Sequence record: MN342150
Reading direction: 5' to 3' (one strand)
From: Escherichia phage vB_EcoM_3HA11
DNA length: 64,000 nucleotides
Part shown: positions 24,938 through 62,984 of the stretch, one piece after another
How the letters are laid out: every line of letters begins with the position of its first letter
Numbering within the stretch: the first letter of the stretch is position 1
The notes under the pieces: generated by a model
Seen by the model: the letters and a program-made list of their open reading frames with translations, nothing else
The model's database searches: none
What the model was told of the DNA's origin: nothing
Position numbers and translations under genes: made by a program

Positions 24938-24938
24938 C

Positions 24939-25466: not shown

Positions 25467-25477
25467 GGATTATCACA

Positions 25478-27864: not shown

Positions 27865-27866
27865 TA

Positions 27867-31263: not shown

Positions 31264-31267
31264 GGTG

Positions 31268-31301
31268 AAGGGCACTAAATATCAAGTGCCCTTTATCTTT
31301 T
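31268..31301 (+). terminator. rho-independent terminator
   Basis: AGGGCACTaaatatcaAGTGCCCTTTATCTTTT. Confidence 0.65.
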
Positions 31302-31359
31302 AACCCTGTCAGGAGGCTCAATCGAGCTGCAAGTCGACAAACACATAAGGAACGCCATC

Positions 31360-31977
31360 ATGACGATGACAACGTTGAAGGCCATGGCCTTGTCCGTGAC
31401 CTTTACCATTGCCAGCGGGAGTGTGCACGCTTCCCAAAGTACCACCCAATGTGATTACGAATTTTCTGATCAGCAACTTTCAACTATGGCCACTGCCTAT
31501 CACATAGGCAAACAGCAAGACCTTGGTTTCACCCTCGCCGCAATATCATGGAGGGAAAGCCGCGCCGGAGAAGATGTTGTATCCATGCGGAATAACCTGA
31601 AATCGGCTAATATGGGGGCATTTCAAAATCGCGTCCAAACCGTCGGGAAACGGGAGGGATGCAAAACACAGAAGTGTTACGCCAATGTCGCGATCAAATT
31701 ACTGGTCAATCAAGAATATGCTGCCAATGCTGCCCTTGATGAAATGAATTTCTGGCTAGAATATCATAACCAAAACATCCGCAAATCGCTCTCCTCTTAC
31801 AATGCCGGTTTCAGTCGTAACCAAAAATCCAATTCATACGCTGCTGATGTCGTGAAGAAGGCTAAATATCTTCAACGATGTGTGTCTTTCAAAGGCATGG
31901 CAATAAACCCAAAGGTCGACCCAGGAGTGATCGCCATGAATAAGCGCACGATTGAGAAACTCAAGAGGACCCGATAA
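31360..31977 (+). CDS. secreted protein with signal peptide (205 aa)
   Basis: RBS AAGGAA; N-terminus MTMTTLKAMALSVTFTIASGSVHA. Confidence 0.55.
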   Translation: MTMTTLKAMALSVTFTIASGSVHASQSTTQCDYEFSDQQLSTMATAYHIGKQQDLGFTLAAISWRESRAGEDVVSMRNNLKSANMGAFQNRVQTVGKREGCKTQKCYANVAIKLLVNQEYAANAALDEMNFWLEYHNQNIRKSLSSYNAGFSRNQKSNSYAADVVKKAKYLQRCVSFKGMAINPKVDPGVIAMNKRTIEKLKRTR

Positions 31978-32615
31978 TGAATATCACTCCATCTCAGACC
32001 GGATATGAACACTTAATGGTGTTTATTGCGATTCAGGGGGCAAAAGAAGGCATCATCAGTTCTGAATATTCTGGAACGATGCGCCTGGCTGATTATGTTG
32101 CTCCCGAAGCGTTTATCAAGAAATGTATCGACGCATGGTGCCTTTATGCTATCGGCACGTATCCTACTCCTCCGGCAGGTGAGATACTGTTTACCGTTCC
32201 GACCCCAGCCGCTGGCGACACAGACGCGATCTTTGCTGATATGTTGGCCAAAGGTTATCTGGCATATGATAGTGCTCACAATGTCTATGACTTCTCGGCG
32301 TTGAATCGTATCTTCGGATACACCATAACATCCGAAGCCAATATTCCCGACTATGGAATTCTGGCATGGGGTATTGACGGTCTCGGCGCAACATATGCGT
32401 CTTCTGATGTTGGTCCTGTATTGATTGACACAGGTGTGACAATGGAGCAATACATGTCACAATTCCCTCAGCATAATGTTACCGGAAGCGACATCATTAT
32501 TGTCTATCCTGGTTCTAATGCGTTGTCCCGCCTGGTGGACGGCTGGAAGCCTCAGCTGAAGGACATCGTTGCTGGAATCAGATTTCACATCCCTGTCGTC
32601 AATCCCACACCTTAA
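31977..32615 (+). CDS. hypothetical protein (212 aa)
   Basis: TAATG overlap with the upstream gene; no recognisable domain. Confidence 0.5.
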   Translation: MNITPSQTGYEHLMVFIAIQGAKEGIISSEYSGTMRLADYVAPEAFIKKCIDAWCLYAIGTYPTPPAGEILFTVPTPAAGDTDAIFADMLAKGYLAYDSAHNVYDFSALNRIFGYTITSEANIPDYGILAWGIDGLGATYASSDVGPVLIDTGVTMEQYMSQFPQHNVTGSDIIIVYPGSNALSRLVDGWKPQLKDIVAGIRFHIPVVNPTP

Positions 32616-32627
32616 ATTATTCAATAA

Positions 32628-32648
32628 AAGGGGCGTTTGCCCCTTTAC
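32628..32648 (+). terminator. stem-loop/terminator (part of a PeSL-like cassette)
   Basis: AAAGGGGCgtttGCCCCTTTAC, fused to the -35 of the adjacent early promoter. Confidence 0.5.
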
Positions 32649-32671
32649 TTCTTCAATAACCCACGTATAAT
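32643..32671 (+). promoter_or_regulatory. early sigma70-type promoter (CTTTAC-N17-TATAAT)
   Basis: Consensus -10 TATAAT with T4-early-like -35; about 50 nt upstream of the 32720 ATG. Confidence 0.55.
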
Positions 32672-32698
32672 TCTAAACATAAGCAGTACGACACCAAC

Positions 32699-32719
32699 TT
32701 GAAAAGCAGGAACTACATT
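32699..32719 (+). promoter_or_regulatory. conserved 5' leader motif TTGAAAAGCAGGAACTACATT(ATG)
   Basis: Second copy of the leader motif seen at 16410 and 45958. Confidence 0.5.
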
Positions 32720-32995
32720 ATGAAAATCATCCTCGACGCATATATCCGTTACGGCAGCAAATGTCTCATGGCCAAGGTTTATAACGGCGAAGAATTAGTA
32801 CACGCTCAAACTGCTCCTTCTGAACAATTACGTGAAATTATGGCACGTGATTTCCCTGGCGTTGAAATTGTTGAACCCGCCAACCAAGCCGAAGTTGACA
32901 AAGAATGGGAACGCGAATGGAGTCCAGCGGCGCTTACCCAGGCTGAAAAGAATTGGTCTAACCGCGAAAACGCCAACCGTCCTTTCCGTCGTTAA
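32720..32995 (+). CDS. hypothetical protein (91 aa)
   Basis: ORF with SD AGGAA inside the conserved leader. Confidence 0.5.
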   Translation: MKIILDAYIRYGSKCLMAKVYNGEELVHAQTAPSEQLREIMARDFPGVEIVEPANQAEVDKEWEREWSPAALTQAEKNWSNRENANRPFRR

Positions 32996-33073
32996 GACCC
33001 TGGGGCATATAACGCCCCTTTCTTTTCGCTAATTAAGGGAAACCGCACCGATTTTATAATCAGGAGAATTACA

Positions 33074-35461
33074 ATGGCCATCCCATCTTTCTTGAACTTT
33101 CTTGAAGAGTCTAAACAATTAGACGAAGCGTTTAACTCATCCCCGTATGAATTGACTTTCGGCAAGAAGAACGCTGGCGACATTTTCTTCACATTTGTTG
33201 ATGAAGACGAAAAAGAATTCCGTATTCAATTCTATACCCCACAAGGTCTAGGCAAGAATGTTCGCCAAGTCTTTATCGGTCAGAAGCGTGGTTCAACCTA
33301 TCCAGACGCAATCGGTCGTTTCAAAAACCCAATGCGTGTCATCGCATCCATGATCGAAGCGACTAAACAATTCATGGCGACACCGCTGGGTAAAACCATT
33401 GATGGGTTTGCGATTAACTTCTCCAAGAAAGCTCTAGAACGCGGAACGACGTTACTCCCAAAAATTATTCGTCAATCTGGTCTGAAGCAGAAACTCAACG
33501 TCATGGATCTGACTTATACCCCAATCCCTGACCGCGCCTTCGTATGGGTTGTGCGTAAAGGCAAGGATCCTGCTCAGGTATTTGATGGTCCGAAAATGAA
33601 AGGTGTCACATGGGATGATCCGGACAAAGTCGGTGACGTTCCTGACCAGGCTGCTCGTGACGCCGCACTACAAGGTGACATGGATGATTTGAGCCAAGCC
33701 GTAAATGCCGATTCTCGCTGGATTCTGACCAAAGCTGATCATACTCAGCCTATGCTTGTCTGGTCTGGTAAAGAACGTGGGCGGACTATTACCGCCAATA
33801 TCGCACCTCACGCGAATGAACCTGGTGTGTATGCTGGTAGTATCATGAACGAGAAACGGATCCGCGCTCAATCCCCAGACGCTATTGTACGCCAACTGGG
33901 ATTACCGCAGATCCCTCTGAATATTCTGAATGATTTCACCAAGCAGTCGTCCATCTTCTGGAAAGAGATGACGGGGGATTCTGGAAAAATAGACATGCAG
34001 ACTCTTCCAAAAACCGGTTCTATGGATGATCTGCGCAACCAGGGTTATATCGCCCGCATCTTGGGCATCGTTGATACATATGCTCCTCAGCAAGTCGGCA
34101 TGTATGCTGGTGAAAAATTGGCTCGGGTTGGTGCTGGCAAATATCGAACTTCTGGCGGGTTGGATATTCAAGTCTATTTTTGGGGGATTGTCAACAGCAA
34201 ACTCTCTGTAGAAGTGGTTTCTGATTTATCTGGCAATGAACAGCTGATGCTGGAAGGCGACGTGAAAAACGCGGCTTTTGAAATCGTCAGTGCGATATCC
34301 CGTGCTGCTGATTCTCAGTTCAACGGTGAAGTGGAATGTCGTGTTGTTCCGATCAACGGTGCCCCATACCCGATTCAAAAGATTTCCCGTTCCCAGGGTT
34401 ATTCTTATGTCGATTGTATTTCGTTTACTTTGAAGATCGCCGATGCATTGTTAAATCGATTTACTCTGGGTAAGGCAGTCAAACTCGATCTGATAAAAGA
34501 GTTCCCTCGAACGACGTTTATTGTTCGTTATGACTGGCGCGGCAAAGATACTCTGATGGTCCAGTCTTCTGATGGGAAGACTATCTTCGGCGAAATCAAC
34601 ACAAATTCCAGTGATAACGCTGTCATCACTGCGAACCTGAAAGCCCCAAGCAATGCGAAGATATTTGGTGAAACCGTTCATGGGTTCTCTGTGGCTTGGG
34701 ACTTCCAGTTCCCTGCGGGTAGCCAGCTGCAAGCCGCACGGTTCGTTACGAACGTGACTTACGACTTCGATCGTAATAAGGCCAACATCACGACCATGCT
34801 GACAGAAAATGGCCGAAATGTAGTCAATAGCCGCGGATATGACATTCAGTTATCTGTCAAGTCTGTGCAAGATGCTTTGAATGAGACTTCACAACGCCTG
34901 AAAGACGCTGCGGCTCAATTGAGCCATCTCAGTTCATCAAACTATAACCCGAACAATCTGTTCCTGAATGATATCACCGTCAGTAAGTTTGGTGCAATTA
35001 TGTTCCAAGACAAAGATCTGGCACAGTCCAGAAACCGCACGGTAGTCATTGATGCTTTGGCTCGGGCGAAAGATCAGGTCGCTGGTGGTAAGAATGCAGG
35101 TGACCTGGCCACCTATGCCGGATCCATTCGTGACAGCGCTCCTAATGGACGAGATCTGGATTGGCAGGTATACACAGCCAGTAATGGTACAGTTCTGAAT
35201 GTTGCTTGGGATATCACTTTCCGTCGCAACACAACCGAAGGCGCATATCGTGAATTCAAAGATCAGATCAACCGTGCCAACCAATACCTGCAAACGGTAT
35301 ACAACGACGCGAAATCTAAAGGCTATAATCCCACCGAGCCAAATCTCATGACTATTGAACGCGCTCGTCAATCCGACGAATGGGCTATGAGTAATGGTGA
35401 TAGTGCATACAGTGAATATGAACAATCGCTGGGTGGTAATCTCCAGATCCGTCTGAAATAA
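33074..35461 (+). CDS. large virion internal protein candidate (795 aa) with capsid-targeting-like N-terminus
   Basis: RBS CAGGAGAA; N-terminus MAIPSFLNFLEES shares the F-L-x-F-L-E-E pattern with the three downstream internal-protein candidates. Body unassigned. Confidence 0.6.
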   Translation: MAIPSFLNFLEESKQLDEAFNSSPYELTFGKKNAGDIFFTFVDEDEKEFRIQFYTPQGLGKNVRQVFIGQKRGSTYPDAIGRFKNPMRVIASMIEATKQFMATPLGKTIDGFAINFSKKALERGTTLLPKIIRQSGLKQKLNVMDLTYTPIPDRAFVWVVRKGKDPAQVFDGPKMKGVTWDDPDKVGDVPDQAARDAALQGDMDDLSQAVNADSRWILTKADHTQPMLVWSGKERGRTITANIAPHANEPGVYAGSIMNEKRIRAQSPDAIVRQLGLPQIPLNILNDFTKQSSIFWKEMTGDSGKIDMQTLPKTGSMDDLRNQGYIARILGIVDTYAPQQVGMYAGEKLARVGAGKYRTSGGLDIQVYFWGIVNSKLSVEVVSDLSGNEQLMLEGDVKNAAFEIVSAISRAADSQFNGEVECRVVPINGAPYPIQKISRSQGYSYVDCISFTLKIADALLNRFTLGKAVKLDLIKEFPRTTFIVRYDWRGKDTLMVQSSDGKTIFGEINTNSSDNAVITANLKAPSNAKIFGETVHGFSVAWDFQFPAGSQLQAARFVTNVTYDFDRNKANITTMLTENGRNVVNSRGYDIQLSVKSVQDALNETSQRLKDAAAQLSHLSSSNYNPNNLFLNDITVSKFGAIMFQDKDLAQSRNRTVVIDALARAKDQVAGGKNAGDLATYAGSIRDSAPNGRDLDWQVYTASNGTVLNVAWDITFRRNTTEGAYREFKDQINRANQYLQTVYNDAKSKGYNPTEPNLMTIERARQSDEWAMSNGDSAYSEYEQSLGGNLQIRLK

Positions 35462-35511
35462 ACCATAGCCCCTTCGGGGGCTAAATACATCAAAATCCTT
35501 AGGAGATCATG

Positions 35512-36081
35512 ATGAAACCGTTTATCGAATATTTTAAAGAACAAGCCCAGCAGCCGCAAACTCATGGCGGTATACAAGGCAAAAGTGTAACCATCACTAA
35601 ACAAGCCGATGGAACACAATGGTGCTCCGGCGCTACCGTGACCCAGATCACTCCTGACAATCAGGCCGATGTCTATAACCTGGAATTGACTAATGGCAAC
35701 ACCACTAAAGTGAAACTGACGCCGGACCAGGTTCATGCGGTTTCTGTGGGCAAAGATGTTGTTGCCGTTCATGACGGATACGAATTCTTCTTTGGTAAAG
35801 ACGCCAGCAAAGGTCAGGTCACAGAATCCTATGCTCAAGAACTAGCGAATATGGATAAGATGATCGGTAAAGCGCTGGGCGTTGGCAAATCTCGTAAAAG
35901 CGGTCGTACAGAGTTTGAATATTCCGGTATTCCTGGTATTGGAAAACCTGTCGCAATCGACTTCGGCGGCGAAGACGATCCGTATGTGATCGTCACAGTC
36001 GCTGGTAAACAGCATGACATCAGTAAGGGAAAAACCCTAGCTGTGGACATTGCCAAATATATCGGCGTGAAACCTGTCTAA
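35512..36081 (+). CDS. internal head protein candidate (CTS-bearing)
   Basis: RBS TAGGAGA; N-terminus MKPFIEYFKEQA resembles the T4 internal-protein capsid targeting sequence MKTYQEFIAEA. Confidence 0.55.
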   Translation: MKPFIEYFKEQAQQPQTHGGIQGKSVTITKQADGTQWCSGATVTQITPDNQADVYNLELTNGNTTKVKLTPDQVHAVSVGKDVVAVHDGYEFFFGKDASKGQVTESYAQELANMDKMIGKALGVGKSRKSGRTEFEYSGIPGIGKPVAIDFGGEDDPYVIVTVAGKQHDISKGKTLAVDIAKYIGVKPV

Positions 36082-36090
36082 GGAGGTTGT

Positions 36091-36330
36091 ATGAAAGGGT
36101 TCCCGGATTTCCTGAAAGAGGCGAAGGTTGACCATCGCCGCCTTGGACAACAAGGTATGTACGACATCACTGATGTTGGCCGCCCCGAAAAAGGCGAACT
36201 GATCGACTACTATGATCGTAACGGGGACAAACATCAGGGGAAAGTGAAGTCTGTGAACGCACAGAATATCATGACTCTGACAAACACCAGCACTGGTGAA
36301 ACAGTCAAACTGACTCTGATTAAGCCATAA
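36091..36330 (+). CDS. internal head protein candidate (CTS-bearing)
   Basis: RBS AAGGAGG; N-terminus MKGFPDFLKEAK. Confidence 0.55.
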   Translation: MKGFPDFLKEAKVDHRRLGQQGMYDITDVGRPEKGELIDYYDRNGDKHQGKVKSVNAQNIMTLTNTSTGETVKLTLIKP

Positions 36331-36360
36331 AAGAAACCCCGCTTCGGCGGGGTTTTTGTT
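36331..36360. terminator. bidirectional rho-independent terminator
   Basis: AAAGAAACCCCGCttcgGCGGGGTTTTTGTT between convergent genes (ends at 36330 and 36359). Confidence 0.7.
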
Positions 36361-36964
36361 ACTTCACGTACATACAGACCTGGACCTTCTTGCCTTTGTC
36401 GTTCTTGACTTCTACTAATTTAGAAGCGCCATTCAGCTTGACGACAGTCCCCTTTTCCTTCCCACCACTTGGCAATTCATATTCAATCTCTTCACCAGGA
36501 GAAGGCATGCCAGCGCTTGGCCCCATAACAGCAGAGATCTTGTAACGTGCCATACCAGGGCGACCACCTTTGAAGGCATACCAGCCACCTTCTTGCATGT
36601 CTTTCCACTGTTTGTTACCGTCAACAACAATGGATGGATTACCGAAACCGGCCTTGATACCCAGCAAGTCAATTGTCTTTCCCGACTTGTTGTATTTTAC
36701 GGCAGTGTCACCATCAAACTTGTCCAGCATCTGAGTACTGGCGAACTGCCCGTCTTTGATACCAGAAGCAGCGATAACGTCCTTGGCGTTTGTCAGGACA
36801 ATCTTGCGCCCGTCTGGGGTTTCGAAAGTCACCTTATCACCAGAAACATCGGCGTGGAGGAACGTACCCGCAACGTCTTCTGTTGATTTACCGATCTTGT
36901 CAGACTTGATATGTGCAGACATCGGCGGCGCGGCTTCGGTCAAAAAGTCTTGAAAAGTTTTCAT
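36359..36964 (-). CDS. internal head protein candidate (CTS-bearing)
   Basis: RBS TGGAGAA; N-terminus MKTFQDFLTEA is nearly identical to the T4 IPI/IPII/IPIII CTS (MKTYQEFIAEA), with a Glu-Ala processing-site-like junction. Confidence 0.65.
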   Translation of the reverse strand: MKTFQDFLTEAAPPMSAHIKSDKIGKSTEDVAGTFLHADVSGDKVTFETPDGRKIVLTNAKDVIAASGIKDGQFASTQMLDKFDGDTAVKYNKSGKTIDLLGIKAGFGNPSIVVDGNKQWKDMQEGGWYAFKGGRPGMARYKISAVMGPSAGMPSPGEEIEYELPSGGKEKGTVVKLNGASKLVEVKNDKGKKVQVCMYVK

Positions 36965-37051
36965 TTCGTTCTCCAGTTATATTATTCTATATAGTACCTC
37001 ATAGACCCCATTAACACTAAATACTAGACAGTTCAACAATAGGAAACAATC

Positions 37052-37405
37052 ATGGTAAGCGCGAGTATATTCATCAACCGTGGACTGCTTGCTATAGCCC
37101 ACTCTCATGCCCTCCACTTCGTTACAACTTCCTATGCCAAGCACAAGGCACTCGGGGAGTTCTACGGGGAACTGGAGGACTTGCTGGATACCTTTACAGA
37201 GGCATATATCGGCGCGGGTGGTGTATATGTCCCAGGGTTTGAGAATATTAAACTGTACAACCCAGATCCTATATCGTATGTCAACAGCGTTGTTATCGAC
37301 GTAAACGGAATTTATGGTCAATGTGACAGCCATCTTCAAAATACGCTCGATGAAATCAAAACTTTGTGCTATCAGACCATCTACAAACTGAAGCAATTGT
37401 CTTAA
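37052..37405 (+). CDS. hypothetical protein (117 aa)
   Basis: RBS AGGAAA; preferred over the overlapping minus ORF 36977..37396 on strand context and RBS. Confidence 0.45.
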   Translation: MVSASIFINRGLLAIAHSHALHFVTTSYAKHKALGEFYGELEDLLDTFTEAYIGAGGVYVPGFENIKLYNPDPISYVNSVVIDVNGIYGQCDSHLQNTLDEIKTLCYQTIYKLKQLS

Positions 37406-37467
37406 CTCAATAGAACATCCTTCAGGTTATAATTTGCCCATTCGTCATCAATAGGATACAGATAACA

Positions 37468-38085
37468 ATGGGCAAAATCTTTATACCTTCTCATTCGGAA
37501 GGTTGTCAAATCGCTGCAAAATTTCTACACAAACAAATGAATTGTGGTGCTGTGTTCGTAGAACCAAATTCATTCGATAATCGTGAATCCCCTGACGCCA
37601 TCGGGTTCAGACCTGGGGGTTGTTCTATATTAATGGAAGTGAAAGTTTCTCGTTCTGATTTCCTAACCGATAAAAAGAAACCACACAGAATGGATCCTTC
37701 AACAGGAATGGGGGCATACCGATTTTATGTTTGTCCTGCTGATGTGATCAAAGTTGAAGATCTCCCACCAAAGTGGGGATTATTATATTTCACTCCTCGG
37801 AAATCATTGAAGCCCGTTCACGTTCCGAATATGCAATATTCTTCGTTATCTTCTCCGGAACATTATGCAAAATATTTGTCCACAGCATTAGGCAAAAAGC
37901 GGTCGACAGATATTCCTCCTTACCTGTTAGGATATAAGCAGATGTTGGAAGAATTCGCCCACTTTGAACGAAATCAAGTCGCAGAGCAGAATATTCTATA
38001 TGGTGCATGGAGACAGCTTTGCATAGCTCAAAGTCGCGGTGTAAATTATAATGTGACAGAAGTATTCCAAAGGCCAAATATCTGA
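37468..38085 (+). CDS. hypothetical protein, possible PD-(D/E)XK nuclease fold
   Basis: PDAIGFRPGGCSILMEVKVSRSDF contains a D ... E-V-K arrangement; weak. Confidence 0.4.
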   Translation: MGKIFIPSHSEGCQIAAKFLHKQMNCGAVFVEPNSFDNRESPDAIGFRPGGCSILMEVKVSRSDFLTDKKKPHRMDPSTGMGAYRFYVCPADVIKVEDLPPKWGLLYFTPRKSLKPVHVPNMQYSSLSSPEHYAKYLSTALGKKRSTDIPPYLLGYKQMLEEFAHFERNQVAEQNILYGAWRQLCIAQSRGVNYNVTEVFQRPNI

Positions 38086-39149
38086 TGAAATTCTTAGACG
38101 AACAATACATCAATTTCCTCGCCCCTCGGCTTGACAAGTTCAGCTGGGAACGCGTAGGCGCTGTCGCCAAGTTCCGTTGCCCTCTATGCGGGGACTCTAA
38201 GAAGAGTGCCAACAAACGTCGTGGTCACTTCTTTTATGATCGCGATGAAGATGTGTTTCGTTTTAAGTGTCACAACTGCAACGAGATGAGTGGTTGGTCG
38301 TTTGAGTTTTGGTTGAAGAAGTTTGATGAAAGATTGTACAACGAATATAATCTTGAAAAATTCAGAATCATGGGGGACACCAATTCACGCCCCCTACAAA
38401 AACTCAAGCCATTACAGCGCCTCACCCAAACAGCGCGTATCGGCTCCCAAGTTGCCAAAAGAGATGAAGAGCATCTCGGCAACATGATACGATTAGATTT
38501 ACTTGATCGTGACCATATTGCTCGTCGTTACGTGGAAGGCAGGGGAATGCCGGAGAGCGCGTTATCTCTTTTGTATTACAGCAAGAACTTCCGCAAGGAT
38601 CTTTTGAATTTTGAAACAGACGTTGAAAAACAGAAGAAGATCCCTGAAGATGAACGGTTGGTTATCCCATTCTGGACTCAAGACGGTCGCATGAAGATCG
38701 TTCAGGGGCGCGCATTCGGTGATAACCTTCCTGATAATGTGTTGCGGTACGCCACTGTCAAGCCCAAAAACGAGGATACTAAAATCTATGGGGAAGAGCG
38801 CATCATATGGAATAAGACCAAATTGGTCGTTGAAGGTCCAATTGATAGCCTGTTCCTCCCGAATTGTTTAGCAACTGCGGATGCTGACCTTCTGAGCGCC
38901 AAGGGGGATATCTATATCCCTGACAACCAATATCGAAACAAACAAGTTTGTGATGGTATACAGAAAATGATAGACAGCGGAGTCAAAGTCGTTCTGTTCC
39001 CGCCAGAAATTCCATGGAAGGATATCAACGATATGGTTCGCCCCGACAAGGGAAATATCCCGATACGTGATCTGCTTCAGATCATAGCCAAGAACGTATA
39101 TCAGGGGATGTCGGCGTCCTTACGATTTTCTGACTTGAGGAAGATATGA
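38085..39149 (+). CDS. 61: DNA primase gp61 (zinc ribbon + Toprim)
   Basis: KFRCPLCGDSKKSANKRRGHF ... CHNCN zinc ribbon; Toprim motifs LVVEGPIDSLF and DNQ; C-terminal region like T4 gp61. Confidence 0.85.
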   Translation: MKFLDEQYINFLAPRLDKFSWERVGAVAKFRCPLCGDSKKSANKRRGHFFYDRDEDVFRFKCHNCNEMSGWSFEFWLKKFDERLYNEYNLEKFRIMGDTNSRPLQKLKPLQRLTQTARIGSQVAKRDEEHLGNMIRLDLLDRDHIARRYVEGRGMPESALSLLYYSKNFRKDLLNFETDVEKQKKIPEDERLVIPFWTQDGRMKIVQGRAFGDNLPDNVLRYATVKPKNEDTKIYGEERIIWNKTKLVVEGPIDSLFLPNCLATADADLLSAKGDIYIPDNQYRNKQVCDGIQKMIDSGVKVVLFPPEIPWKDINDMVRPDKGNIPIRDLLQIIAKNVYQGMSASLRFSDLRKI

Positions 39150-39355
39150 TGGATTTGAAAGAACTGAATAGTATGGACGATGAAGAGATTCTTCGTGGGT
39201 ATATGCAAGCCCGTGAAGGATATGTCCTATCTGGCTTAGAATCTAAGAGTTTCATCCATGGTTGGAGGAACGGAATGGTGGACTTCGGTGGTTGTCCTAT
39301 CACTGAAGAACAAATGAATTTGGCTCGCCAGTATTTGAAAAAGAAGCCGACCTAA
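39146..39355 (+). CDS. hypothetical protein (69 aa)
   Basis: ATGA overlap with the primase gene. Confidence 0.45.
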   Translation: MMDLKELNSMDDEEILRGYMQAREGYVLSGLESKSFIHGWRNGMVDFGGCPITEEQMNLARQYLKKKPT

Positions 39356-39383
39356 AACTTTTTAACTCAAAAACCTTCTCTCT

Positions 39384-39413
39384 AGGCCTCATTCTACGAG
39401 GCCTTTTAAAATA
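39384..39413 (+). terminator. rho-independent terminator
   Basis: AGGCCTCattctacGAGGCCTTTTAAAA. Confidence 0.6.
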
Positions 39414-39447
39414 CTTCAAAAATAATTTAAAAATTTATTGAAAAAGA

Positions 39448-39477
39448 CTTTACTCTTCAATAATCATGCACTATTAT
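39448..39477 (+). promoter_or_regulatory. early sigma70-type promoter (CTTTAC-N18-TATTAT)
   Basis: Same -35 context (CTTTACTCTTCAATAA) as the promoter at 32643. Confidence 0.5.
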
Positions 39478-39554
39478 AGTTCACATAGGGCGGTACACAA
39501 CACCCCGCCGAATGAAAAGTGAAACGACCCAACTACATTATGAGGAATTACATC

Positions 39555-40043
39555 ATGGCTACTACCAAAACTCTGATCACCAACGGCACCATCTCTTTTG
39601 AACTGAACACCGAAGTTGCAAAAGTTGAAATGTTCCGCATCGCGCAGGCAGCTGGCTTCACTGGTGGCAAAACTTCCTTCATGAATCTGCTGAACGGCAA
39701 AGTGAAAGCAACCAACGGTTTCACCCTGGTAGAGCAGGTTGTCGTAGACAAAGCCGTGGTTGCCAAGACTGCTGACAAGGTTGGCATGCTGAAAGGCCTG
39801 GGTCATGATATCCACGTCGTTGAAGCCAACACAGAGACCTACGGCACAATCGTAACAGAAAAAGGCCGTGTGCAACTGAACCCTCTTAACAACGGCACCT
39901 TCTCGGTAATGGTCTTCCCTAAAAAGGGCTATGCCAACGACGACATCGTCAAGGCGGCGGGCGGCGAAGCGAAGTCCCAGTATGTCAAGATGGGCAAGCT
40001 GAGCGCCGACGCAGTAGAAACTCTGGTGAACAAACTGGCTTAA
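39555..40043 (+). CDS. hypothetical protein (163 aa), monocistronic early gene
   Basis: SD GAGGA; lies between its own promoter and terminator; Ala/Val/Lys-rich. Alternative start 39540. Confidence 0.55.
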   Translation: MATTKTLITNGTISFELNTEVAKVEMFRIAQAAGFTGGKTSFMNLLNGKVKATNGFTLVEQVVVDKAVVAKTADKVGMLKGLGHDIHVVEANTETYGTIVTEKGRVQLNPLNNGTFSVMVFPKKGYANDDIVKAAGGEAKSQYVKMGKLSADAVETLVNKLA

Positions 40044-40047
40044 TTGA

Positions 40048-40074
40048 AAGGGGGAGGTTTCTCCCCTCTTTTTC
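40048..40074 (+). terminator. rho-independent terminator
   Basis: AGGGGGAGgtttCTCCCCTCTTTTTC. Confidence 0.65.
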
Positions 40075-40098
40075 AAAGTTTTGGTGGGAGAATGATAC

Positions 40099-40287
40099 AT
40101 GAGTAGAGCAATTATCCAAGCCTCTCCTGGCGCTCTATGGGTTGCCGACCGAATTCCCAACGCGCACTTTCCTCAGTTCCAGGAGGAACTGGAACAAGCA
40201 ATGTTGAAAATATTTGAAAAATATGGGTATGATTCCGAAGTTAGGATTTCCTTCAAAGAAATCATGCCTGTCGTCGTAGTCAGATAA
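40099..40287 (+). CDS. small hypothetical protein (62 aa)
   Basis: RBS GGGAGAA. Confidence 0.4.
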   Translation: MSRAIIQASPGALWVADRIPNAHFPQFQEELEQAMLKIFEKYGYDSEVRISFKEIMPVVVVR

Positions 40288-40318
40288 TCGACACTAAATC
40301 CTCAAGTTCGACTTTCAC

Positions 40319-40326
40319 TTTAAATA
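40319..40326 (+). promoter_or_regulatory. late-promoter-like box TTTAAATA
   Basis: One mismatch from TATAAATA, about 30 nt upstream of the endolysin ATG. Confidence 0.3.
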
Positions 40327-40356
40327 CCTTCGCATACATTGCGGAGGTATTTTCTT

Positions 40357-41151
40357 ATGGCCATTCTAAAACTTGGCAACCGAGGTTCTGAAGTCAAAGC
40401 GCTTCAACAAAGCCTCAACAAAATCGGTTTCTCCCTTACAGCCGATGGCATATTTGGTAAAGCAACAGAGAATGCTGTCAAATCCGTTCAGGCAGGTGCT
40501 GGATTGGTTATTGATGGTATTGCTGGGCCAAAGACCTTCTATGCTATCCGCAACTCTGGAGACGCTCATCAGGAACATCTGACCGAAGCGGACTTGGTTG
40601 ACGCAGCACGTGAACTTGGTGTTGAGCTGGCCAGTATGAAAGCTGTGAATCAGGTAGAATCCCGTGGCACGGGTTTTACCAAAACCGGCAAGATCAAAAC
40701 TCTGTTTGAGCGCCACATCATGTACAAAAAGGTGACGGCCAAATTCGGACAAGCAAGAGCCAATGCTCTGTACCAACTCTACCCAACATTGGTTAACCCC
40801 AATTCTGGCGGGTATATCGGCGGAGACGCGGAGTTGGAACGCCTTCAGGGTGCAATCGCCCTTGACGAGGACTGCGCTTACGAGAGTGCTTCCTACGGCC
40901 TATTCCAGATCATGGGGTTCAACTGCCAAATCTGTGGATATCCAAATGCCAAAGAGATGTTCACTGATTTCCTGACTGGTGAACGCGCTCATCTTCTGGC
41001 ATTTGTCAAGTTCATCAAGGCTGATGCCAATATGTGGAAAGCCCTGAAGAACAAGAATTGGGCCGAGTTTGCTCGTCGGTACAATGGTCCGGCATATGCG
41101 AAAAACCAGTATGATACTAAACTGGCGGCAGCATACAAGAGTTTCTGTTAA
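40357..41151 (+). CDS. endolysin: peptidoglycan-binding domain + N-acetylmuramidase-like catalytic domain
   Basis: RBS GGAGG. N-terminal LKLGNRGSEVKALQQSLNKIGF ... DGIFGKATENAVKSVQ is a PG_binding_1 repeat; C-terminal region (LFQIMGFN, YNGPAYAKNQYDTKL) resembles the muramidase family. Confidence 0.7.
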   Translation: MAILKLGNRGSEVKALQQSLNKIGFSLTADGIFGKATENAVKSVQAGAGLVIDGIAGPKTFYAIRNSGDAHQEHLTEADLVDAARELGVELASMKAVNQVESRGTGFTKTGKIKTLFERHIMYKKVTAKFGQARANALYQLYPTLVNPNSGGYIGGDAELERLQGAIALDEDCAYESASYGLFQIMGFNCQICGYPNAKEMFTDFLTGERAHLLAFVKFIKADANMWKALKNKNWAEFARRYNGPAYAKNQYDTKLAAAYKSFC

Positions 41152-57225: not shown

Positions 57226-58185
57226 ATGTCCTATATTCTTCATATCGAGTCCGGCCTGAAATTTGAAATTGATGGTAAAACCGCTGCTGATCTTCAAGCA
57301 GAAATCAAAGGTGCAGACCTTATCATCGGCAACGTCACGTTACGCCGTATGATGGAAGGCGTCCTCCAGTCAGCCAACGGCTTTGAACTCATTGAAGGTC
57401 TGAGCCAGGAAGAGAAAGAAGAGACTCTCGAAGCTCTTGACCGCGCTGAAGCCGAAAAAGTTAAACCGACCGAAGATGCGGGGGTTAAACAGGGCGACGG
57501 TGAATCAAATCCGGTGATTGACGCTGAAGAAACGGTTGGGCAACCTGCCGGTGATCAAAATTCCCAGACCGTCGAAGACGGTTCTCTTGAAGTCAACAAA
57601 GACGGTTCCATTTCCCTGGTAGTTGAAGGCGAAGAAGTTCTTGACGAAGAAGCGCAAGCCCGTGCTGAAGAAGTTCGCCGTCGTATGCTGGGCACAACCG
57701 TTGCTGAAGCAATCGCCGACGTTGAAAATCCGAAGGATGATCAGGCTTTAGCGAACGCGAAGGCGGTTCTGGCCAAGAAATCTTCTGAAATGCGTCCTGC
57801 GTCTTCTACTGAAGAACGCAAGCGTCGTCATAACAAACGTGAAGAAATGGTTGACGCCGCTCGTGCTTCTAACTATGGTCCAATCCTGGCGGCGGTTGAA
57901 GCAGGGGTTACTCCTGAAGTATATTTGAGTTATGTGAACCCTGATATGCGCTGGTTCCAGTTCCCTGTCACTGAATTGGCAGACGAAGCCAATCCGCATG
58001 CCCGCACCAACACCTATGTTGATCTGGCACCTATCGTTTCCGGCGGCTGGGGTTTCAGTCTGTATGTGAATGGTAAGTCATTCACCAAGCGTCAGAAAAT
58101 CAAAGAAACTGACGCTGAATCTCTGGTAAAGGCTATCAACGAATGGTTGCCTCAGGCGTTGGCCGAAGCGAAAGCTGCTGCGTAA
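57226..58185 (+). CDS. acidic hypothetical protein (319 aa)
   Basis: Glu/Asp-rich central region; no domain assigned. Confidence 0.5.
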   Translation: MSYILHIESGLKFEIDGKTAADLQAEIKGADLIIGNVTLRRMMEGVLQSANGFELIEGLSQEEKEETLEALDRAEAEKVKPTEDAGVKQGDGESNPVIDAEETVGQPAGDQNSQTVEDGSLEVNKDGSISLVVEGEEVLDEEAQARAEEVRRRMLGTTVAEAIADVENPKDDQALANAKAVLAKKSSEMRPASSTEERKRRHNKREEMVDAARASNYGPILAAVEAGVTPEVYLSYVNPDMRWFQFPVTELADEANPHARTNTYVDLAPIVSGGWGFSLYVNGKSFTKRQKIKETDAESLVKAINEWLPQALAEAKAAA

Positions 58186-58257
58186 TTTAACTCAGAAGCA
58201 TTCAATAGATGAAGGGGTTGCTATAATAGCAGCTCCTTTTGTTTATTGGAGCATGTC

Positions 58258-58920
58258 ATGTCTTATTCGCTCAAAGGGCTGTTGAAGCGCCCTGTGCATT
58301 TGTTTGTCAAACCACCTGCTGTAGAAGGGGAATATTCGGCACGAGGAGAGTTGTATTACATTAAAGGCTCCAATGGTAGTGGTAAGTCTACTGTGCCCTC
58401 TTATTTGGCGGAGAATGATCCTCAGGCGTATGTCGTAACCCATAACAGTAAGATCATGCTCACGGTTTGTCCATCTTACAATATTGTCTGTGTCGGTAAA
58501 TATGACAAGTCTAAGTCCAAAGGGGTTGATTCTCTGAAGGATACTGAGCAGATGTTGTTCGCGTTGTCTATTTCTGACCAACCAGAATACCTGAAATATG
58601 ATGTGATTTTCGAAGGCATCATTCCGTCTACATTATTGAGTTCTTGGATCCCCCGCCTGACACGCCCACCACGTGAATTGGTCGTCCTCTTTATGGATAC
58701 CCCTCTTGAAACCTGTATTGCCCGTGTTAAATCGCGTAACGGTGGCGCAGACTTCAATGAAAGTCTGGTGGTCGAGAAGTGGGAGCGCGTTCACAACCAT
58801 CGGGGGCGGCATAAAGAGTTGTTCCCTACCGTGTGTGCGGGTATGATGAAGTCTCACGGTCTAACTGTAGACCAAGCTGTAATGGCGTTCCTCCTCCGTG
58901 ACTTTGGGAGCATTGACTAA
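58258..58920 (+). CDS. P-loop kinase (AAA_33/polynucleotide-kinase-like); candidate DNA or nucleotide kinase
   Basis: ATG 58258 with SD GGAG (track start 58246 is TTG). Walker A GSNGSGKST, Walker B-like VIFEGI, lid-like ARVKSRNGG. Confidence 0.6.
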   Translation: MSYSLKGLLKRPVHLFVKPPAVEGEYSARGELYYIKGSNGSGKSTVPSYLAENDPQAYVVTHNSKIMLTVCPSYNIVCVGKYDKSKSKGVDSLKDTEQMLFALSISDQPEYLKYDVIFEGIIPSTLLSSWIPRLTRPPRELVVLFMDTPLETCIARVKSRNGGADFNESLVVEKWERVHNHRGRHKELFPTVCAGMMKSHGLTVDQAVMAFLLRDFGSID

Positions 58921-59966
58921 TGGAAATTAAAGCTATCAATAACAACGACATGCTGAAACAGGCTGTCTTGGCTATCCGTGAATACGGGATTGAATCTGAT
59001 CCTGGCAACGCGGAGATCAACACTGACGGCACCCGCTTTCTTGATGGTGTGACTATCACCGTCAGTGATATCCGTGACCGCTGGTTATCCGTTGAAGGTC
59101 GCAACTCATCGGCCATCGCAGCTATCGGTGAGACTTTCTGGGTGCTGGCTGGGCGCAATGACCTGAAGTTCCTGTCACGTGTCCTGCCCCGCGCTGCCAA
59201 CTTCTCCGACGATGGCCTAACATGGCGAGCCGCTTATGGGCCGCGCCTGTACGCCCATGGTCAGTTACAGAGCGTCATCAACCGTCTCCGCAAAAACATC
59301 AACACCCGTCAGGCGTATCTCACCATCTATGATCCGTCTCTGGACTCTGATGTTGGTCTGGCCAAGCACAACGGCTCAAACGAAGCGAAGACCAAAGACA
59401 TGGTGTGTAACCTGGCTCTGTTATTTGCTGTCGTTGAAGGTCGTCTGAACCTGACGGTCATCAACCGCTCACAAGATGTCCTGTGGGGTATGAGTTCAAT
59501 CAACTTCATTGAGTTCTCTATCCTTCAGGAAGTGATCGCGCAGGTGCTGGATGTAGACGTCGGCCAGTACAAGCTGTTCTCTAACAATCTTCATTACTAC
59601 AACAATGAAGTCAGCCAGAAGCAGCTGGGTAAGATCACGAAGGACACCAAAGTAGAAGCTGGGTTCATCAACTCCATGATTCACTTCACGAACGTGACCA
59701 ACCAGAACCATATCCGCAATCTGTTCACTGGTGTGCTTCATCACTGTGATATCGGTAGCCCGTGGGAAACTGTGGTCGCCCACCTGAAGGAGTACGATGC
59801 TGATCGCGGCCTGATCGTACAGATGGCATACTGCCTGTACTGCAAGCTGAACGACAAGCTCATCAACATGAACCTGATTCAGGATCATGGCCTGAACATT
59901 GCACTCACTCACTCTCCGGTTGACCGCAAGATCGTTGATCCAAAGTTCCTGGAAGGTGCGTTATGA
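58920..59966 (+). CDS. thymidylate-synthase-family deoxypyrimidine hydroxymethylase (dUMP- or dCMP-hydroxymethylase-like)
   Basis: TS-fold core C-N-x18-RSQD-VLWG (catalytic Cys, RSxD 19 residues later, conserved Gly). Cys is followed by Asn not His; the base-specificity position after the Gly is I/N, not the Asp of T4 dCMP hydroxymethylase. 348 aa. Confidence 0.6.
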   Translation: MEIKAINNNDMLKQAVLAIREYGIESDPGNAEINTDGTRFLDGVTITVSDIRDRWLSVEGRNSSAIAAIGETFWVLAGRNDLKFLSRVLPRAANFSDDGLTWRAAYGPRLYAHGQLQSVINRLRKNINTRQAYLTIYDPSLDSDVGLAKHNGSNEAKTKDMVCNLALLFAVVEGRLNLTVINRSQDVLWGMSSINFIEFSILQEVIAQVLDVDVGQYKLFSNNLHYYNNEVSQKQLGKITKDTKVEAGFINSMIHFTNVTNQNHIRNLFTGVLHHCDIGSPWETVVAHLKEYDADRGLIVQMAYCLYCKLNDKLINMNLIQDHGLNIALTHSPVDRKIVDPKFLEGAL

Positions 59967-60532
59967 TGTATCCAAACCTTGAATTCTTTACGGGGCGTAA
60001 GCGCTCCGGCAAGGACTTCTGTTTGGAGTCCCTGATCAGCTACCACCATCTACAGGGAGACAAGGACATTCAACGCCTGTCTTTCTCGGATGAGCTGCGC
60101 CGTGTTGCCAACTACATCTACCCGTGGCTGCCTGAGGAGGTGGAGGATGCTGTGAAGGACGTTTCATTCATACACCCCGATAACCCCAAGGGCTTAACTC
60201 CACGGCAGATCTGGCTTCATCTCGGCAGCGATACGGGCTTGCGTTACGTACAGCCTGATCTGTTCCTGGCGTTCTTCAAGCGCTTCCAGCTTCCTCTGGT
60301 AGAGCAGAACCCTCACGTCCATTATATCGTGAGCGACCTGCGCACCCCCCAGGAATATGAATGGGCGCTGAGTACGAAATGTCCTATCACCCGCATTTCA
60401 AAGGCCGACCGCGCTGGTATCATAGAGGACGATATAGAGGCTTTCATTGATAAGATGGAAGTTGATTATGAATTTGTCAATCCGTTTGAAGGTTGGCAAC
60501 CGTTCGTCAAATTTTATAGGGATCGGAAATGA
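59963..60532 (+). CDS. deoxynucleoside monophosphate kinase (T4 gp1-like)
   Basis: N-terminal P-loop FTGRKRSGKD matches T4 gp1 (LSGVKRSGKD); ATGA overlap with the upstream gene. Confidence 0.65.
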   Translation: MMYPNLEFFTGRKRSGKDFCLESLISYHHLQGDKDIQRLSFSDELRRVANYIYPWLPEEVEDAVKDVSFIHPDNPKGLTPRQIWLHLGSDTGLRYVQPDLFLAFFKRFQLPLVEQNPHVHYIVSDLRTPQEYEWALSTKCPITRISKADRAGIIEDDIEAFIDKMEVDYEFVNPFEGWQPFVKFYRDRK

Positions 60533-61077
60533 TCACAACAGAGCATATTAAAAGTCTGCTCGAACTTCAAAAGGCCACCAACGTGGCCTATTTTGGGGAA
60601 GAGTGGAAGAATGTATGGAGTCAGAACGCGATCATCAACTCCATCTATCGCGAGTGGGCGGAGTTCCTTGACGAAACCACCCGCGACTGGAAGGTCTATG
60701 GTAACGACATCGGGTTTCACCATGCGAACGCAGTCTATGAACTGGTGGACGTGGTTCACTTCATGCTGTGTTTCATCCTCGTCGATCGCACCAAAGGAGA
60801 GATTGAAGAAGAAATGGAGAATCTTGGCCGACGGCTCGTCCCAGGGACGAGTTCAGTAGGGCATCGCAATGTTACGTATCGCCTTGGGCAGTTCATGAAC
60901 GATCCTTGCGTCGAGACTCTCATGGTCTTCCTATCGACTGTGTGTTCTTACATGGAGATCGACATTGAGACCTACATGCTGGCACACAAGCGCAAAAACG
61001 ATCGCAATCGGCTGCGTGCTGCTGGCGGCGCGAATTACGATAAGTCCGCAGAAACCCCTCTGACCCTGGAGTTCTAA
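60529..61077 (+). CDS. MazG-like dNTP pyrophosphatase (gp56 dCTPase/dUTPase-like)
   Basis: All-alpha protein with acidic helix motifs (REWAEFLDE, ELVDVVHFML); positioned in the nucleotide-metabolism block. Confidence 0.45.
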   Translation: MITTEHIKSLLELQKATNVAYFGEEWKNVWSQNAIINSIYREWAEFLDETTRDWKVYGNDIGFHHANAVYELVDVVHFMLCFILVDRTKGEIEEEMENLGRRLVPGTSSVGHRNVTYRLGQFMNDPCVETLMVFLSTVCSYMEIDIETYMLAHKRKNDRNRLRAAGGANYDKSAETPLTLEF

Positions 61078-61607
61078 TGTTTACAGTTGTCGTATCATAT
61101 TATGCGGAACATGCCCCGCAAATGGCAGAGAACTTTGCTGAGTTTATTAAACCTGGCAGACATGTCGTTATCGCGACCAAATTCAACAAAGAACCAGATG
61201 GTGCGGCTACTGTAACGCAACATATTACAACTCCAGAGCCGGAAACCCTTTTCAAACGTATTGAAGATTTTGCTTTTGGCGGGGAAGAAATTCCAGAGTC
61301 ATTACAGCATATCTATTTTGAAGATGCGATATATTATGTTCATGCTATTCCAAAGGATGTTACAACTGAACAAATGATGTATATCCTGAATATCGCATTG
61401 AATGTTTCTTGTGTCAACAGGGCACAGCACAATCGTCTGCGTAATATGTATTTAACAGAACGCGGGGGTTCCGAAATTAACGATGAAAAACTCCCGTCAA
61501 TAATGGCGATTCACGAAGCAATCAATATATTGTCCAAGAAAGTCTTGGGCACCGATTTATTAATTACGATCAACAAGCAAGAGGAAACGAAATGGCCGAT
61601 TCATTGA
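61077..61607 (+). CDS. hypothetical protein (176 aa)
   Basis: ORF; no recognisable domain. Confidence 0.45.
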   Translation: MFTVVVSYYAEHAPQMAENFAEFIKPGRHVVIATKFNKEPDGAATVTQHITTPEPETLFKRIEDFAFGGEEIPESLQHIYFEDAIYYVHAIPKDVTTEQMMYILNIALNVSCVNRAQHNRLRNMYLTERGGSEINDEKLPSIMAIHEAINILSKKVLGTDLLITINKQEETKWPIH

Positions 61608-62677
61608 TGGCTCGCATGCTCAAGACAGCAAAGAAACTGGACCCGAATGCCGAAGTGCTGTCAAAGACCGATGCGCTGAAGCCTGACATTATTTGCAGTA
61701 CGGGTATTCCTATTCTGAATTTGGCCTGGTCCGGTCGTATTGATGGTGGTCTGATATCAGGCATCAAACAGTTGGTGGGGGATTCTCGTACATTCAAAAC
61801 CATGTTTGGGCTGGTAGATGTTAAGGCTTACATGGATAAGTTTCCTGATGCAATTTGTATCTTCGCGGATTCCGAAGGCGGTGCGAATGAAAACTACTGG
61901 ACATCTATGGGTATTGACATGGACCGTGTCTTGTATCTGCCGATTGAAAACGTTGAAAAGACGAAGATCAAGCTGACACAGCTTCTGAATGATGCTCAGA
62001 AAGGTGACAAGATCATCGTATTCATCGACTCAATCAGCCAGTTGCCGTCTACCAAAGAAGTTGATGATGCTATCGCGGGCAAAGACACACAAGATATGAC
62101 TCGCGCTCGCGCTCTCAATAGTTTTTGGCGTGTTATCACTCCGTTGGTCACTGAAAAGAAATTCGTTTTGGTATGGATCAACTCGTACTATGATGAAATC
62201 GGGAACCAATACGCCGAGCCGAACATCAAAGGCGGTAAACAGGGGTTCCTGTCTTCTAACCAATTGTGGTTCATCACGCGTTCTCAAGTAAAAGAAGACA
62301 AAGACCTTTTGGGATGGCAGTTTACAGTCAACATCATGAAAGGTCGCTTTGTCCGTGAAAAATCCAAGTTCCCTGTCACTGTGTTGTATGAAGGCGGTAT
62401 TGACCGTTGGTCCGGTATGTTAGAAATTGCGCGCATGCTGGGGTATGTGGATTTGGTGAGTGGTTCTTGGTATCAACGTACTGCCAAAGGCGGGTTTGAT
62501 CCAGAAAAAGAAAAGAAATATCGTAAGGCAGAGCTGGGGGATGACTTCTGGTATCCGTTGCTGGAAAACCCAGACTTTGTTGACGATGTGAACAACATGT
62601 TCGGTATCTCTCAGAGTTCGGTTATGCCTGCAGATATGCTGGAGCGCCTCGATAATGTCATCAAAACAACCGAGTAA
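61592..62677 (+). CDS. uvsX: UvsX recombinase (RecA/Rad51 family)
   Basis: Near-colinear with T4 UvsX: GIPILNLAWSGRIDGGL, VFIDSISQL, DMTRARALNSFWRVITP, LLGWQFTVNIMKGRFVREKSKF, GGIDRWSGMLEIARMLGYV. Confidence 0.9.
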   Translation: MADSLMARMLKTAKKLDPNAEVLSKTDALKPDIICSTGIPILNLAWSGRIDGGLISGIKQLVGDSRTFKTMFGLVDVKAYMDKFPDAICIFADSEGGANENYWTSMGIDMDRVLYLPIENVEKTKIKLTQLLNDAQKGDKIIVFIDSISQLPSTKEVDDAIAGKDTQDMTRARALNSFWRVITPLVTEKKFVLVWINSYYDEIGNQYAEPNIKGGKQGFLSSNQLWFITRSQVKEDKDLLGWQFTVNIMKGRFVREKSKFPVTVLYEGGIDRWSGMLEIARMLGYVDLVSGSWYQRTAKGGFDPEKEKKYRKAELGDDFWYPLLENPDFVDDVNNMFGISQSSVMPADMLERLDNVIKTTE

Positions 62678-62984
62678 TATTGCAGGGGGAGGAGACTCCC
62701 CCGTTAATTACAAAATCATCGACCCTGGTTCTGATCAGTTAGCTATTATCGAAATAACGGAAGGCAAGTTCCGCGGTGTTCAATTTCGTATAGGAAAAGT
62801 GGGTGTCCATGTAGACAATGGAGAACCTCGGTTATCCTTTACGACGGATATATTGAAGAAACCATGGCGTTTGTTATTTGTTAATTTGAAAGAAAATGAC
62901 TTGTTCACTGTGGTGTCTGGGGATATCTTAGTTGATCTGATACAGCAAAATGCTCAGGATTACAACAAAATTTTGGTGGGGTAG
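62655..62984 (+). CDS. hypothetical protein (109 aa) between uvsX and gene 41
   Basis: Occupies the position of gene 40 in T4; homology not established. Confidence 0.4.
   Translation: MSSKQPSNIAGGGDSPVNYKIIDPGSDQLAIIEITEGKFRGVQFRIGKVGVHVDNGEPRLSFTTDILKKPWRLLFVNLKENDLFTVVSGDILVDLIQQNAQDYNKILVG

Follow-up and report, generated by a model that had tools for sequence, protein, structure and literature searches.

Salmonella phage ViI offers the closest described counterpart to the genes considered here. Its DNA contains 5-(2-aminoethoxy)methyl-deoxyuridine (5-NeOmdU), a base whose formation has been rebuilt from lysates with gp67, gp160, gp226, gp243, and gp247 (PMC5889632). Within this pathway gp67 and gp243 phosphorylate 5-hydroxymethyldeoxyuridine (5-hmdU) in DNA, gp247 (a clade-2 aGPT-Pplase, now called ADDT or AADT) transfers serine via its hydroxyl, and gp226 decarboxylates the attached serine; the scheme for the nucleotide pool of phages with hydroxymethyluracil (hmU) combines a dUMP hydroxymethylase, a deoxynucleoside monophosphate (dNMP) kinase, and a dTTPase (PMC8989533). 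Measurements have shown 5-NeOmdU in ViI, CBA120, and phiHS2; the pathway counts as a family trait of the Ackermannviridae in a review of 2024 and a preprint of 2026, its genes being reported as conserved across the family. Here we analyze a 64,000-nt stretch of Escherichia phage vB_EcoM_3HA11 (MN342150; hereafter the window), in which four consecutive genes at 58258..61077 encode a P-loop kinase, a thymidylate synthase (TS)-fold protein, a dNMP kinase, and an all-alpha pyrophosphatase (PPase). With high confidence, we read this block as the nucleotide-pool arm of ViI-type thymidine hypermodification, together with the first enzyme to act on DNA, in a Kuttervirus of the Ackermannviridae. The original prediction had favored 5-hmdU-based thymidine hypermodification over hydroxymethylcytosine (hmC) of the T4 type, a view supported by the kinase's membership in PF18748, its orthology to gp67, and Asn195 of the TS-fold protein. 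The system is already known, its biology having been published in 2018 and 2021 (Lee et al., PNAS and NAR).

The kinase that heads the block is orthologous to ViI gp67. Its match to the PF18748 profile reaches 370.9 bits (cutoff 27) and covers profile positions 1–195 of 196. It is 90.9% identical in amino acid sequence to gp67 (YP_004327432), and in both phages its gene immediately precedes that of the TS homolog. It keeps a complete Walker A motif (GSNGSGKS, G37–S44, followed by T45), identical in ViI gp67. Likeness to polynucleotide kinase (PNK) is marginal (PHROG 505, E = 0.0076; AAA_33, E = 0.0013), zeta toxin also matches at 1e-3 or weaker, and phmmer found no match for the kinase in the PDB. 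The family calls first made for the four genes thus all hold at family level, except that this kinase has only a remote likeness to PNK, its specific family being PF18748 rather than the PNK enzymes. The 5-hmdU DNA kinase activity of ViI gp67 has been demonstrated in vitro (PMC8989533), and co-association of the kinase gene with a dUMP hydroxymethyltransferase gene has been described (PMC5889632). As an ortholog of gp67, the kinase would phosphorylate the 5-hydroxymethyl group of hmU in DNA, yielding 5-phosphomethyldeoxyuridine (5-PmdU). Orthologs of this kinase are called "terminase small subunit" or "baseplate hub" in RefSeq and GenBank, and PHROG 800 bears the terminase label; the true ViI small terminase is Vi01_162c, making the terminase label a systematic misannotation.

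The TS-fold protein shows signatures of a uracil-type hydroxymethylase. It scores 56.3 bits on PF00303 (cutoff 24.3), is 74.8% identical to ViI Vi01_060c, and has as its best PDB match the CMP hydroxymethylase MilA (2.3e-15), with thymidylate synthases following at 3.6e-8 or weaker. Seven NCBIfam ThyA equivalog models give it only 23–53 bits against cutoffs of 108–427. In alignment, C163, R183, S184, D186, H225, and Y227 correspond to C146, R166, S167, D169, H207, and Y209 of E. coli TS, and N195 aligns with N177. Asparagine at the latter position is characteristic of uracil-type enzymes, and mutagenesis has tied aspartate there to cytosine specificity. The kept asparagine points to uracil, not cytosine, as the substrate; and because a hydroxymethylase is the closest structure and both the catalytic cysteine and the uracil-type asparagine are retained, we read the protein as a dUMP hydroxymethylase, which would make 5-hmdUMP from dUMP and methylene-tetrahydrofolate.

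The two downstream genes are consistent with the rest of a nucleotide-pool arm. The dNMP kinase is 94.2% identical to ViI "dnk" (Vi01_059c) and has the P-loop GRKRSGKD at residues 11–18; phmmer retrieved no PDB chain and no Pfam or NCBIfam model exceeded its cutoff, so that family membership comes from the PHROG profile alone. It is predicted to convert 5-hmdUMP to 5-hmdUDP. The pyrophosphatase scores 34.8 bits on PF08761 (dUTPase_2; cutoff 22.9), and its best PDB match is the Campylobacter jejuni dimeric dUTPase 1W2Y, with whose acidic pairs E42/E45 and E71/D74 align. These four residues are invariant with respect to the ViI allele Vi01_058c, which is 62.6% identical overall. Across the proteins, NCBIfam offered no specific model, only subthreshold ThyA and dUTPase matches.

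Comparisons with public genomes place the block in a well-populated lineage. By megablast the block is matched by 272 phage records, 200 of which cover at least 80% of it; nearly all are Ackermannviridae, from phages of Salmonella, Escherichia, Klebsiella, Dickeya, and Shigella. Because so many records match, the four open reading frames (ORFs) are real, conserved genes. The window is collinear with ViI (NC_015296) positions 96409..33126, reversed, at about 94–98% nucleotide identity over most of its length, and is therefore a Kuttervirus genome segment; its DNA is about 96% identical to that of ViI. From kinase through TS homolog, dnk, PPase, and ACT to UvsX, the genes follow one another as in Vi01_061c to 056c. 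A divergence hot spot relative to ViI (down to 37–60%, against about 94–99% in the rest of the window) nevertheless spans 58200..62700: nucleotide identity is 98–100% upstream to 58200, 52–89% over the 3′ half of the kinase gene and the TS gene (58200..60000), 37–68% within the PPase gene (60600..61000), and 61–77% in UvsX (72.2% amino acid identity). However, the TS allele occurs at 98% nucleotide identity in the Kutterviruses Det7, SP1, and Se-J, and the PPase allele at 99.8% in phages barely and SeF3a. We thus rejected the divergent alleles as the sign of a new variant; judged from these matches, the block is a mosaic, put together by recombination from Kuttervirus alleles that are already known rather than new.

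Taken with the ViI biochemistry, these assignments suggest the following pathway. The TS-fold enzyme would convert dUMP to 5-hmdUMP, the gp1-like kinase would form the diphosphate, and host NDP kinase would complete 5-hmdUTP, with the all-alpha PPase clearing competing dUTP and dTTP from the pool. The phage polymerase would then incorporate 5-hmdU instead of T, and the P-loop kinase would phosphorylate it in DNA to 5-PmdU. After this step a gp247-type serine:DNA transferase, a gp226-type pyridoxal phosphate (PLP) decarboxylase, and a gp243-type second kinase would act: at a fraction of sites phosphate would be exchanged for serine, joined via its oxygen and then decarboxylated to 5-NeOmdU, the product expected by analogy with ViI, while the rest of the hmU would be converted to T by a further enzyme. 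The initial proposal that phosphorylated hmU is aminated does not fit this chemistry, in which the donor is an oxygen-linked serine, subsequently decarboxylated, and not an amine. The modification would block many restriction endonucleases and confer resistance to host nucleases.

Several observations weigh against this interpretation or narrow it. In the TS fold, sequence alone cannot tell a hydroxymethylase from a methylase, and the dUTP/dTTP specificity of the pyrophosphatase would follow from the hmU-phage scheme, for ViI as for the present phage. The TS homolog and the PPase diverge from ViI far more than neighboring genes do. Homologs of gp226, gp243, and gp247 gave no tblastn match in the 64-kb window at E < 1e-3, and their presence in this genome is accordingly deduced from relatives; in ViI these genes lie at 140–152 kb, outside the region that the window covers. 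More generally, the pathway in this phage is read from sequence and its chemistry would be that of the ViI orthologs, so that the substrates of the TS homolog, dNMP kinase, and PPase are predictions, as is the presence of the remaining pathway genes in the part of the genome beyond the window.

One alternative is that the same front end leads to a different final base, with another moiety attached or with hmU or phospho-hmU left in the DNA. The product depends on the tailoring enzymes, which occur in diverse combinations in metaviromes (PMC8989533), the three tailoring homologs were not found in the window, and nucleotide identity to ViI falls sharply across 58200..60000 and 60600..61000. The divergent alleles, however, are ordinary Kuttervirus alleles whose products would act before tailoring begins, the gp160 ortholog shares 96.8% identity with its ViI counterpart, and 5-NeOmdU has been present in all Ackermannviridae tested so far; together these points make a different end product improbable.

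The other two alternatives dispense with thymidine hypermodification altogether. A T4-like hmC pathway standing beside an unrelated PNK-type RNA/DNA end-repair enzyme would be in keeping with the likeness of these genes to T4 gp42/gp1/gp56, with the action of MilA, the closest PDB structure to the TS homolog, on a cytosine nucleotide, and with the weak PNK and AAA_33 matches of the kinase. That account is effectively refuted by the asparagine at the E. coli TS Asn177 position in place of the aspartate of cytosine enzymes, by the contrast between 370.9 bits on the 5-hmdU kinase model and PNK and AAA_33 matches no better than E = 1e-3, and by the action of the kinase's ViI ortholog on hmU in DNA. 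Public records instead label the genes thymidylate synthase, dUTPase, and the like, as would suit an ordinary dTMP supply (canonical thymidylate synthase, dTMP kinase, and dUTPase) with no base modification. Yet all seven ThyA equivalog scores fall far below their cutoffs, a dedicated hmU-DNA kinase heads the block, and DNA of the ViI family is experimentally hypermodified; we give this explanation almost no credence.

Table 1. Features of the window discussed in the text, with their supporting matches
Feature	Coordinates	Strand	Length	Evidence or remark
gp45-type sliding clamp	4146..4814	+		Maps to ViI Vi01_135c, annotated Gp45 sliding clamp
MazG-like pyrophosphatase-family protein	6822..7685	+		PHROG 2144 E=2.8e-132; adjoins gp160 ortholog
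Clade-1 aGPT-Pplase, ViI gp160 ortholog	7752..8975	+	407 aa	PF18723 E=3e-82; C-terminal SVNLLDRLKK
Terminator-like hairpin	58211..58239	+		13-bp stem, then T-run; consensus scan and sequence
5-hmdU DNA kinase, HMUD1 type, ViI gp67 ortholog	58258..58920 (alternative TTG start 58246)	+	220 aa from ATG; 224 aa from TTG	PF18748 E=1.6e-111
Predicted TS-fold dUMP 5-hydroxymethyltransferase	58920..59966	+	348 aa	PF00303 E=3.4e-15; PHROG 3676 E=5.7e-183
T4 gp1-like dNMP kinase	59963..60532	+	189 aa	PHROG 139 E=8.9e-48
All-alpha NTP pyrophosphohydrolase (PPase; dimeric dUTPase/MazG/T4 gp56 superfamily)	60529..61077	+	182 aa	PF08761 E=2.5e-8; PHROG 173 E=1e-40
ACT-like domain protein	61077..61607	+		PF24021 E=1.6e-86; coupled to PPase gene

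The ORF list and the junction sequences bear out the description of four co-oriented plus-strand genes with overlapping stop and start codons (Table 1). Kinase and TS-fold genes meet at TAATG (1-nt overlap), TS-fold and dNMP kinase genes at ATGA (4 nt), dNMP kinase and PPase genes again at ATGA (4 nt), and PPase and ACT-like genes at TAATG (1 nt). The coupled series thereby extends past 61077 through the ACT-like gene to UvsX (61592..62677, 16-nt overlap). A GGAG lies 8 nt upstream of the kinase ATG at 58258, a start that agrees with the 220-aa ViI annotation. The 72-nt gap 5′ of the kinase gene holds the terminator-like hairpin, with TATAAT within its stem; from its sequence the hairpin probably ends, wholly or partly, the transcript arriving from upstream, and it may be a terminator or attenuator between the gene at 57226..58185 and the modification block. 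A sigma-70 scan of this gap, a method that excludes phage-specific promoters, yielded no convincing promoter for the block. The ACT-like protein is possibly a small-molecule-binding or sensing regulator, or a partner, of the block. Its ortholog in ViI is Vi01_057c (tblastn), in the same slot between PPase and UvsX, which in Vibrio phage D528 is taken by gene 0185 and in Aeromonas phage phiA8-29 by gene 046, both of similar size; the window protein has no tblastn match in either D528 or phiA8-29.

Two proteins encoded far from the block had been put forward as amino-acid or amine transferase candidates, and they fare differently. The protein at 7752..8975 (407 aa) shows 96.8% identity to ViI gp160 and does belong to the aGPT-Pplase families, through PF18723 (formerly aGPT-Pplase1, now HMUDK_hel, "HMUDK helical domain"), but this is not the family of the proven transferase gp247, PF18724. 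Its Pfam match is to PF18723 only and not to PF18724 of the ADDT family, whereas ViI gp247 itself matches PF18724 at 3.2e-58. BLASTP found no similarity between the two proteins (E = 2.1), and hhalign of a 41-sequence clade-1 profile against gp247 gave a probability of 0.6%, with no homology beyond a short C-terminal tail. The MazG-like protein at 6822..7685 is rejected as a transferase: it belongs to a pyrophosphatase family (PHROG 2144) and lies outside the five ViI proteins sufficient for reconstitution. It is 100% identical to ViI Vi01_131c, has no Pfam or NCBIfam match, and may, with some uncertainty, belong to the nucleotide-pool arm.

Structure prediction offers a further clue to the clade-1 protein. 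Its AlphaFold2 (AF2) model, obtained alongside an alignment of 41 homologs, is confident (pLDDT 88.4, pTM 0.85), and Foldseek of this model against the PDB returned nothing significant. We compared it with PUGT (PaMx11 gp46, PDB 8Z2M), a 5-PmdU glycinyltransferase grouped with the clade-2 aGPT-Pplases (ADDT, PF18724), and in this comparison the two have a helix-hairpin-helix (HhH)-glycosylase-like fold in common. The family carries the invariant motif E349-N350-x-x-C353-E354, with E349 and C353 unchanged across the 41 homologs; the E349-x3-C353 spacing equals that of the PUGT catalytic pair E243/C247, a likeness of spacing only. Against the PDB, phmmer retrieved nothing for the 407-aa protein even at E ≤ 10, nor anything for ViI gp247; because these searches, like those for the two kinases of the block, came back empty, sequence comparison is too insensitive to tie these families to solved structures. 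The pathway literature assigns no step to clade 1, and PMC8989533 names gp160 once, in a five-lysate mix. In the M6 lysate reaction gp55, an aGPT-Pplase paralog outside the minimal mix that may or may not be of clade 1, is dispensable (PMC8989533). The clade-1 protein may be an active 5-PmdU-activating enzyme, with conversion of hmU to thymine as a candidate role, a suggestion that we hold less firmly than the reading of its tail given below. Directly downstream of its gene, 9089..11110 is a 673-aa ORF with no Pfam or NCBIfam match; it corresponds to two ViI coding sequences, Vi01_129c (491 aa) and Vi01_128c (183 aa), both noted "orf00158", and is either fused in the window phage or frameshifted in ViI.

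Modification enzymes of ViI share a C-terminal tail with the phage DNA polymerase. The tail came to attention because the BLASTP and hhalign comparisons of clade 1 with gp247 matched there only, the hhalign match being confined to the last 15 residues. In the window it occupies 8931..8972, the last 14 codons of the gp160 ortholog. ViI gp160 ends in ...GSVNLLDRLKKPE, gp243 in ...SSVSLLGLMRKA, gp247 in ...TSVNLMSLLKR, and the DNA polymerase in ...RRVNLLSMMGKKG, giving the consensus S/R-V-N/S-L-L/M-x-x-L/M-x-K/R. Expressed as a regular expression, this pattern matches 5/873 ViI segments (stop to stop, at least 60 aa, six frames), namely those four proteins and the 70-aa Vi01_049c. Because the pattern was derived after these sequences had been seen, the matches in ViI cannot by themselves count as an independent test.

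Vibrio phage D528 provides such a test, since distant clade-1 homologs end otherwise in the alignment, in ...TKRLW or ...KSVLDLF. In D528 the HMUDK_hel protein ends in ...STKRLW, the ADDT in ...KTRKLW, the HMUD2 kinase in ...KTKKLW, the DNA polymerase in ...KARKLW, the gp33 homolog in ...KTRKLF, and a 99-aa protein adjoining ligase in ...KTKRLW; the pattern [KR][KR]L[WF]$ matches exactly these 6 of 1021 segments, and the protein families were confirmed by Pfam. A rough estimate made by hand gives a probability of the order of 5e-6 that all three predicted D528 proteins would be among five other matches in ~235 genes. In Aeromonas phage phiA8-29, HMUD2, ADDT, and HMUDK_hel all end in ...TK(K/R)LW, but the polymerase ends in ...KKKVNVLKFFK, the ViI-like type. 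Strict covariation of the tail with the polymerase therefore fails, and we limit the claim to two tail types, each on presumed clamp binders. The three modification enzymes thus have one tail type in common within each of three lineages, joined by the polymerase in two of the three, while the gp67-type kinase, TS homolog, dNMP kinase, PPase, and PLP enzyme carry no such tail.

These patterns suggest that the tail is probably a docking peptide. In the AF2 model of the 407-aa protein, residues 383–399 are disordered and then followed by a short helix, an arrangement that, as modeled, would be typical of a tethered docking peptide. In T4 the polymerase and gp33 bind the sliding clamp. The window encodes a gp45-type clamp, with a weak PF09116 match (E = 3.2e-4, below cutoff) and clamp loader genes directly downstream. 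We tentatively propose, at somewhat less than even odds, that postreplicative modification enzymes are tethered to the replisome by their C-terminal peptide, which would most likely bind the sliding clamp. The nearest precedent is the disputed interaction of T4 alpha-glucosyltransferase with gp45, and the clamp goes unmentioned in both Lee papers (PMC5889632, PMC8989533). If true, tethering would link the tailoring of hmU with the replication fork, and it could help explain partial, patterned modification; confirmation of the shared tails would supply a mechanism coupling hypermodification to replication and mark the clade-1 protein as the next to assay. Only the tail motif and the clade-1 Glu-x3-Cys are potentially new, and both lie partly outside 58258..61077.

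Elsewhere in the window, the gene for the SbcD-like/gp47 nuclease contains a perfect 514-bp tandem duplication (26488..27001 = 27002..27515), which splits it into ORFs at 26220..27011 and 27130..27864; with one copy removed, an intact ViI-like ORF results. An assembly artefact is the probable cause, but the duplication could also be real and disrupt the gene.

The main value of these results lies in annotation. Many public records, RefSeq among them, mislabel the hmU-DNA kinase, and give the hydroxymethylase as "thymidylate synthase"; the correct reading tells users of this phage, in therapy or typing for instance, that its DNA would be refractory to many restriction enzymes and to certain sequencing and cloning procedures.

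Comparison with known systems places the locus closest to ViI and sets it apart from the others by what is done to the base. In T4 the roles of TS-fold hydroxymethylase, gp1-like dNMP kinase (PHROG 139), and all-alpha NTP pyrophosphatase are likewise filled, by gp42, gp1, and gp56, but these act toward cytosine and glucosylation, in contrast to uracil (Asn195), phosphorylation, and amino-acid transfer here. The Bacillus hmU phages SPO1 and SP8, and PhiW-14 and SP10, share by the described scheme the hydroxymethylase, the dNMP kinase, and degradation of dUTP and dTTP (PMC8989533); SPO1 and SP8 end at hmU, whereas the window phage has a DNA kinase that would start further tailoring. PaMx11 gp46 and the clade-2 ADDTs differ from the protein at 7752..8975, which falls in another Pfam family (PF18723). 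Vibrio phage D528 has the TS-dnk-PPase core, and an HMUD1-type kinase was not detected in it; Aeromonas phage phiA8-29 has the same kinase-TS-dnk-PPase block, its HMUD1-type kinase being 34% identical and directly upstream of the TS homolog. In these two phages polymerase, HMUD2, ADDT, HMUDK_hel, TS homolog, dNMP kinase, PPase, and UvsX form one contiguous cluster (14239..28878 of the D528 stretch and 18347..40926 of the phiA8-29 sequence analyzed), and in Kuttervirus the pathway genes are scattered over three loci. Relative to ViI, the differences are the TS-homolog, PPase, and UvsX alleles and the absence of gp226, gp243, and gp247 homologs from the window, while gene order, orientation, and families are the same, the kinase, dNMP kinase, and gp160 ortholog are 90.9%, 94.2%, and 96.8% identical, and the flanking DNA is 96–99% identical.

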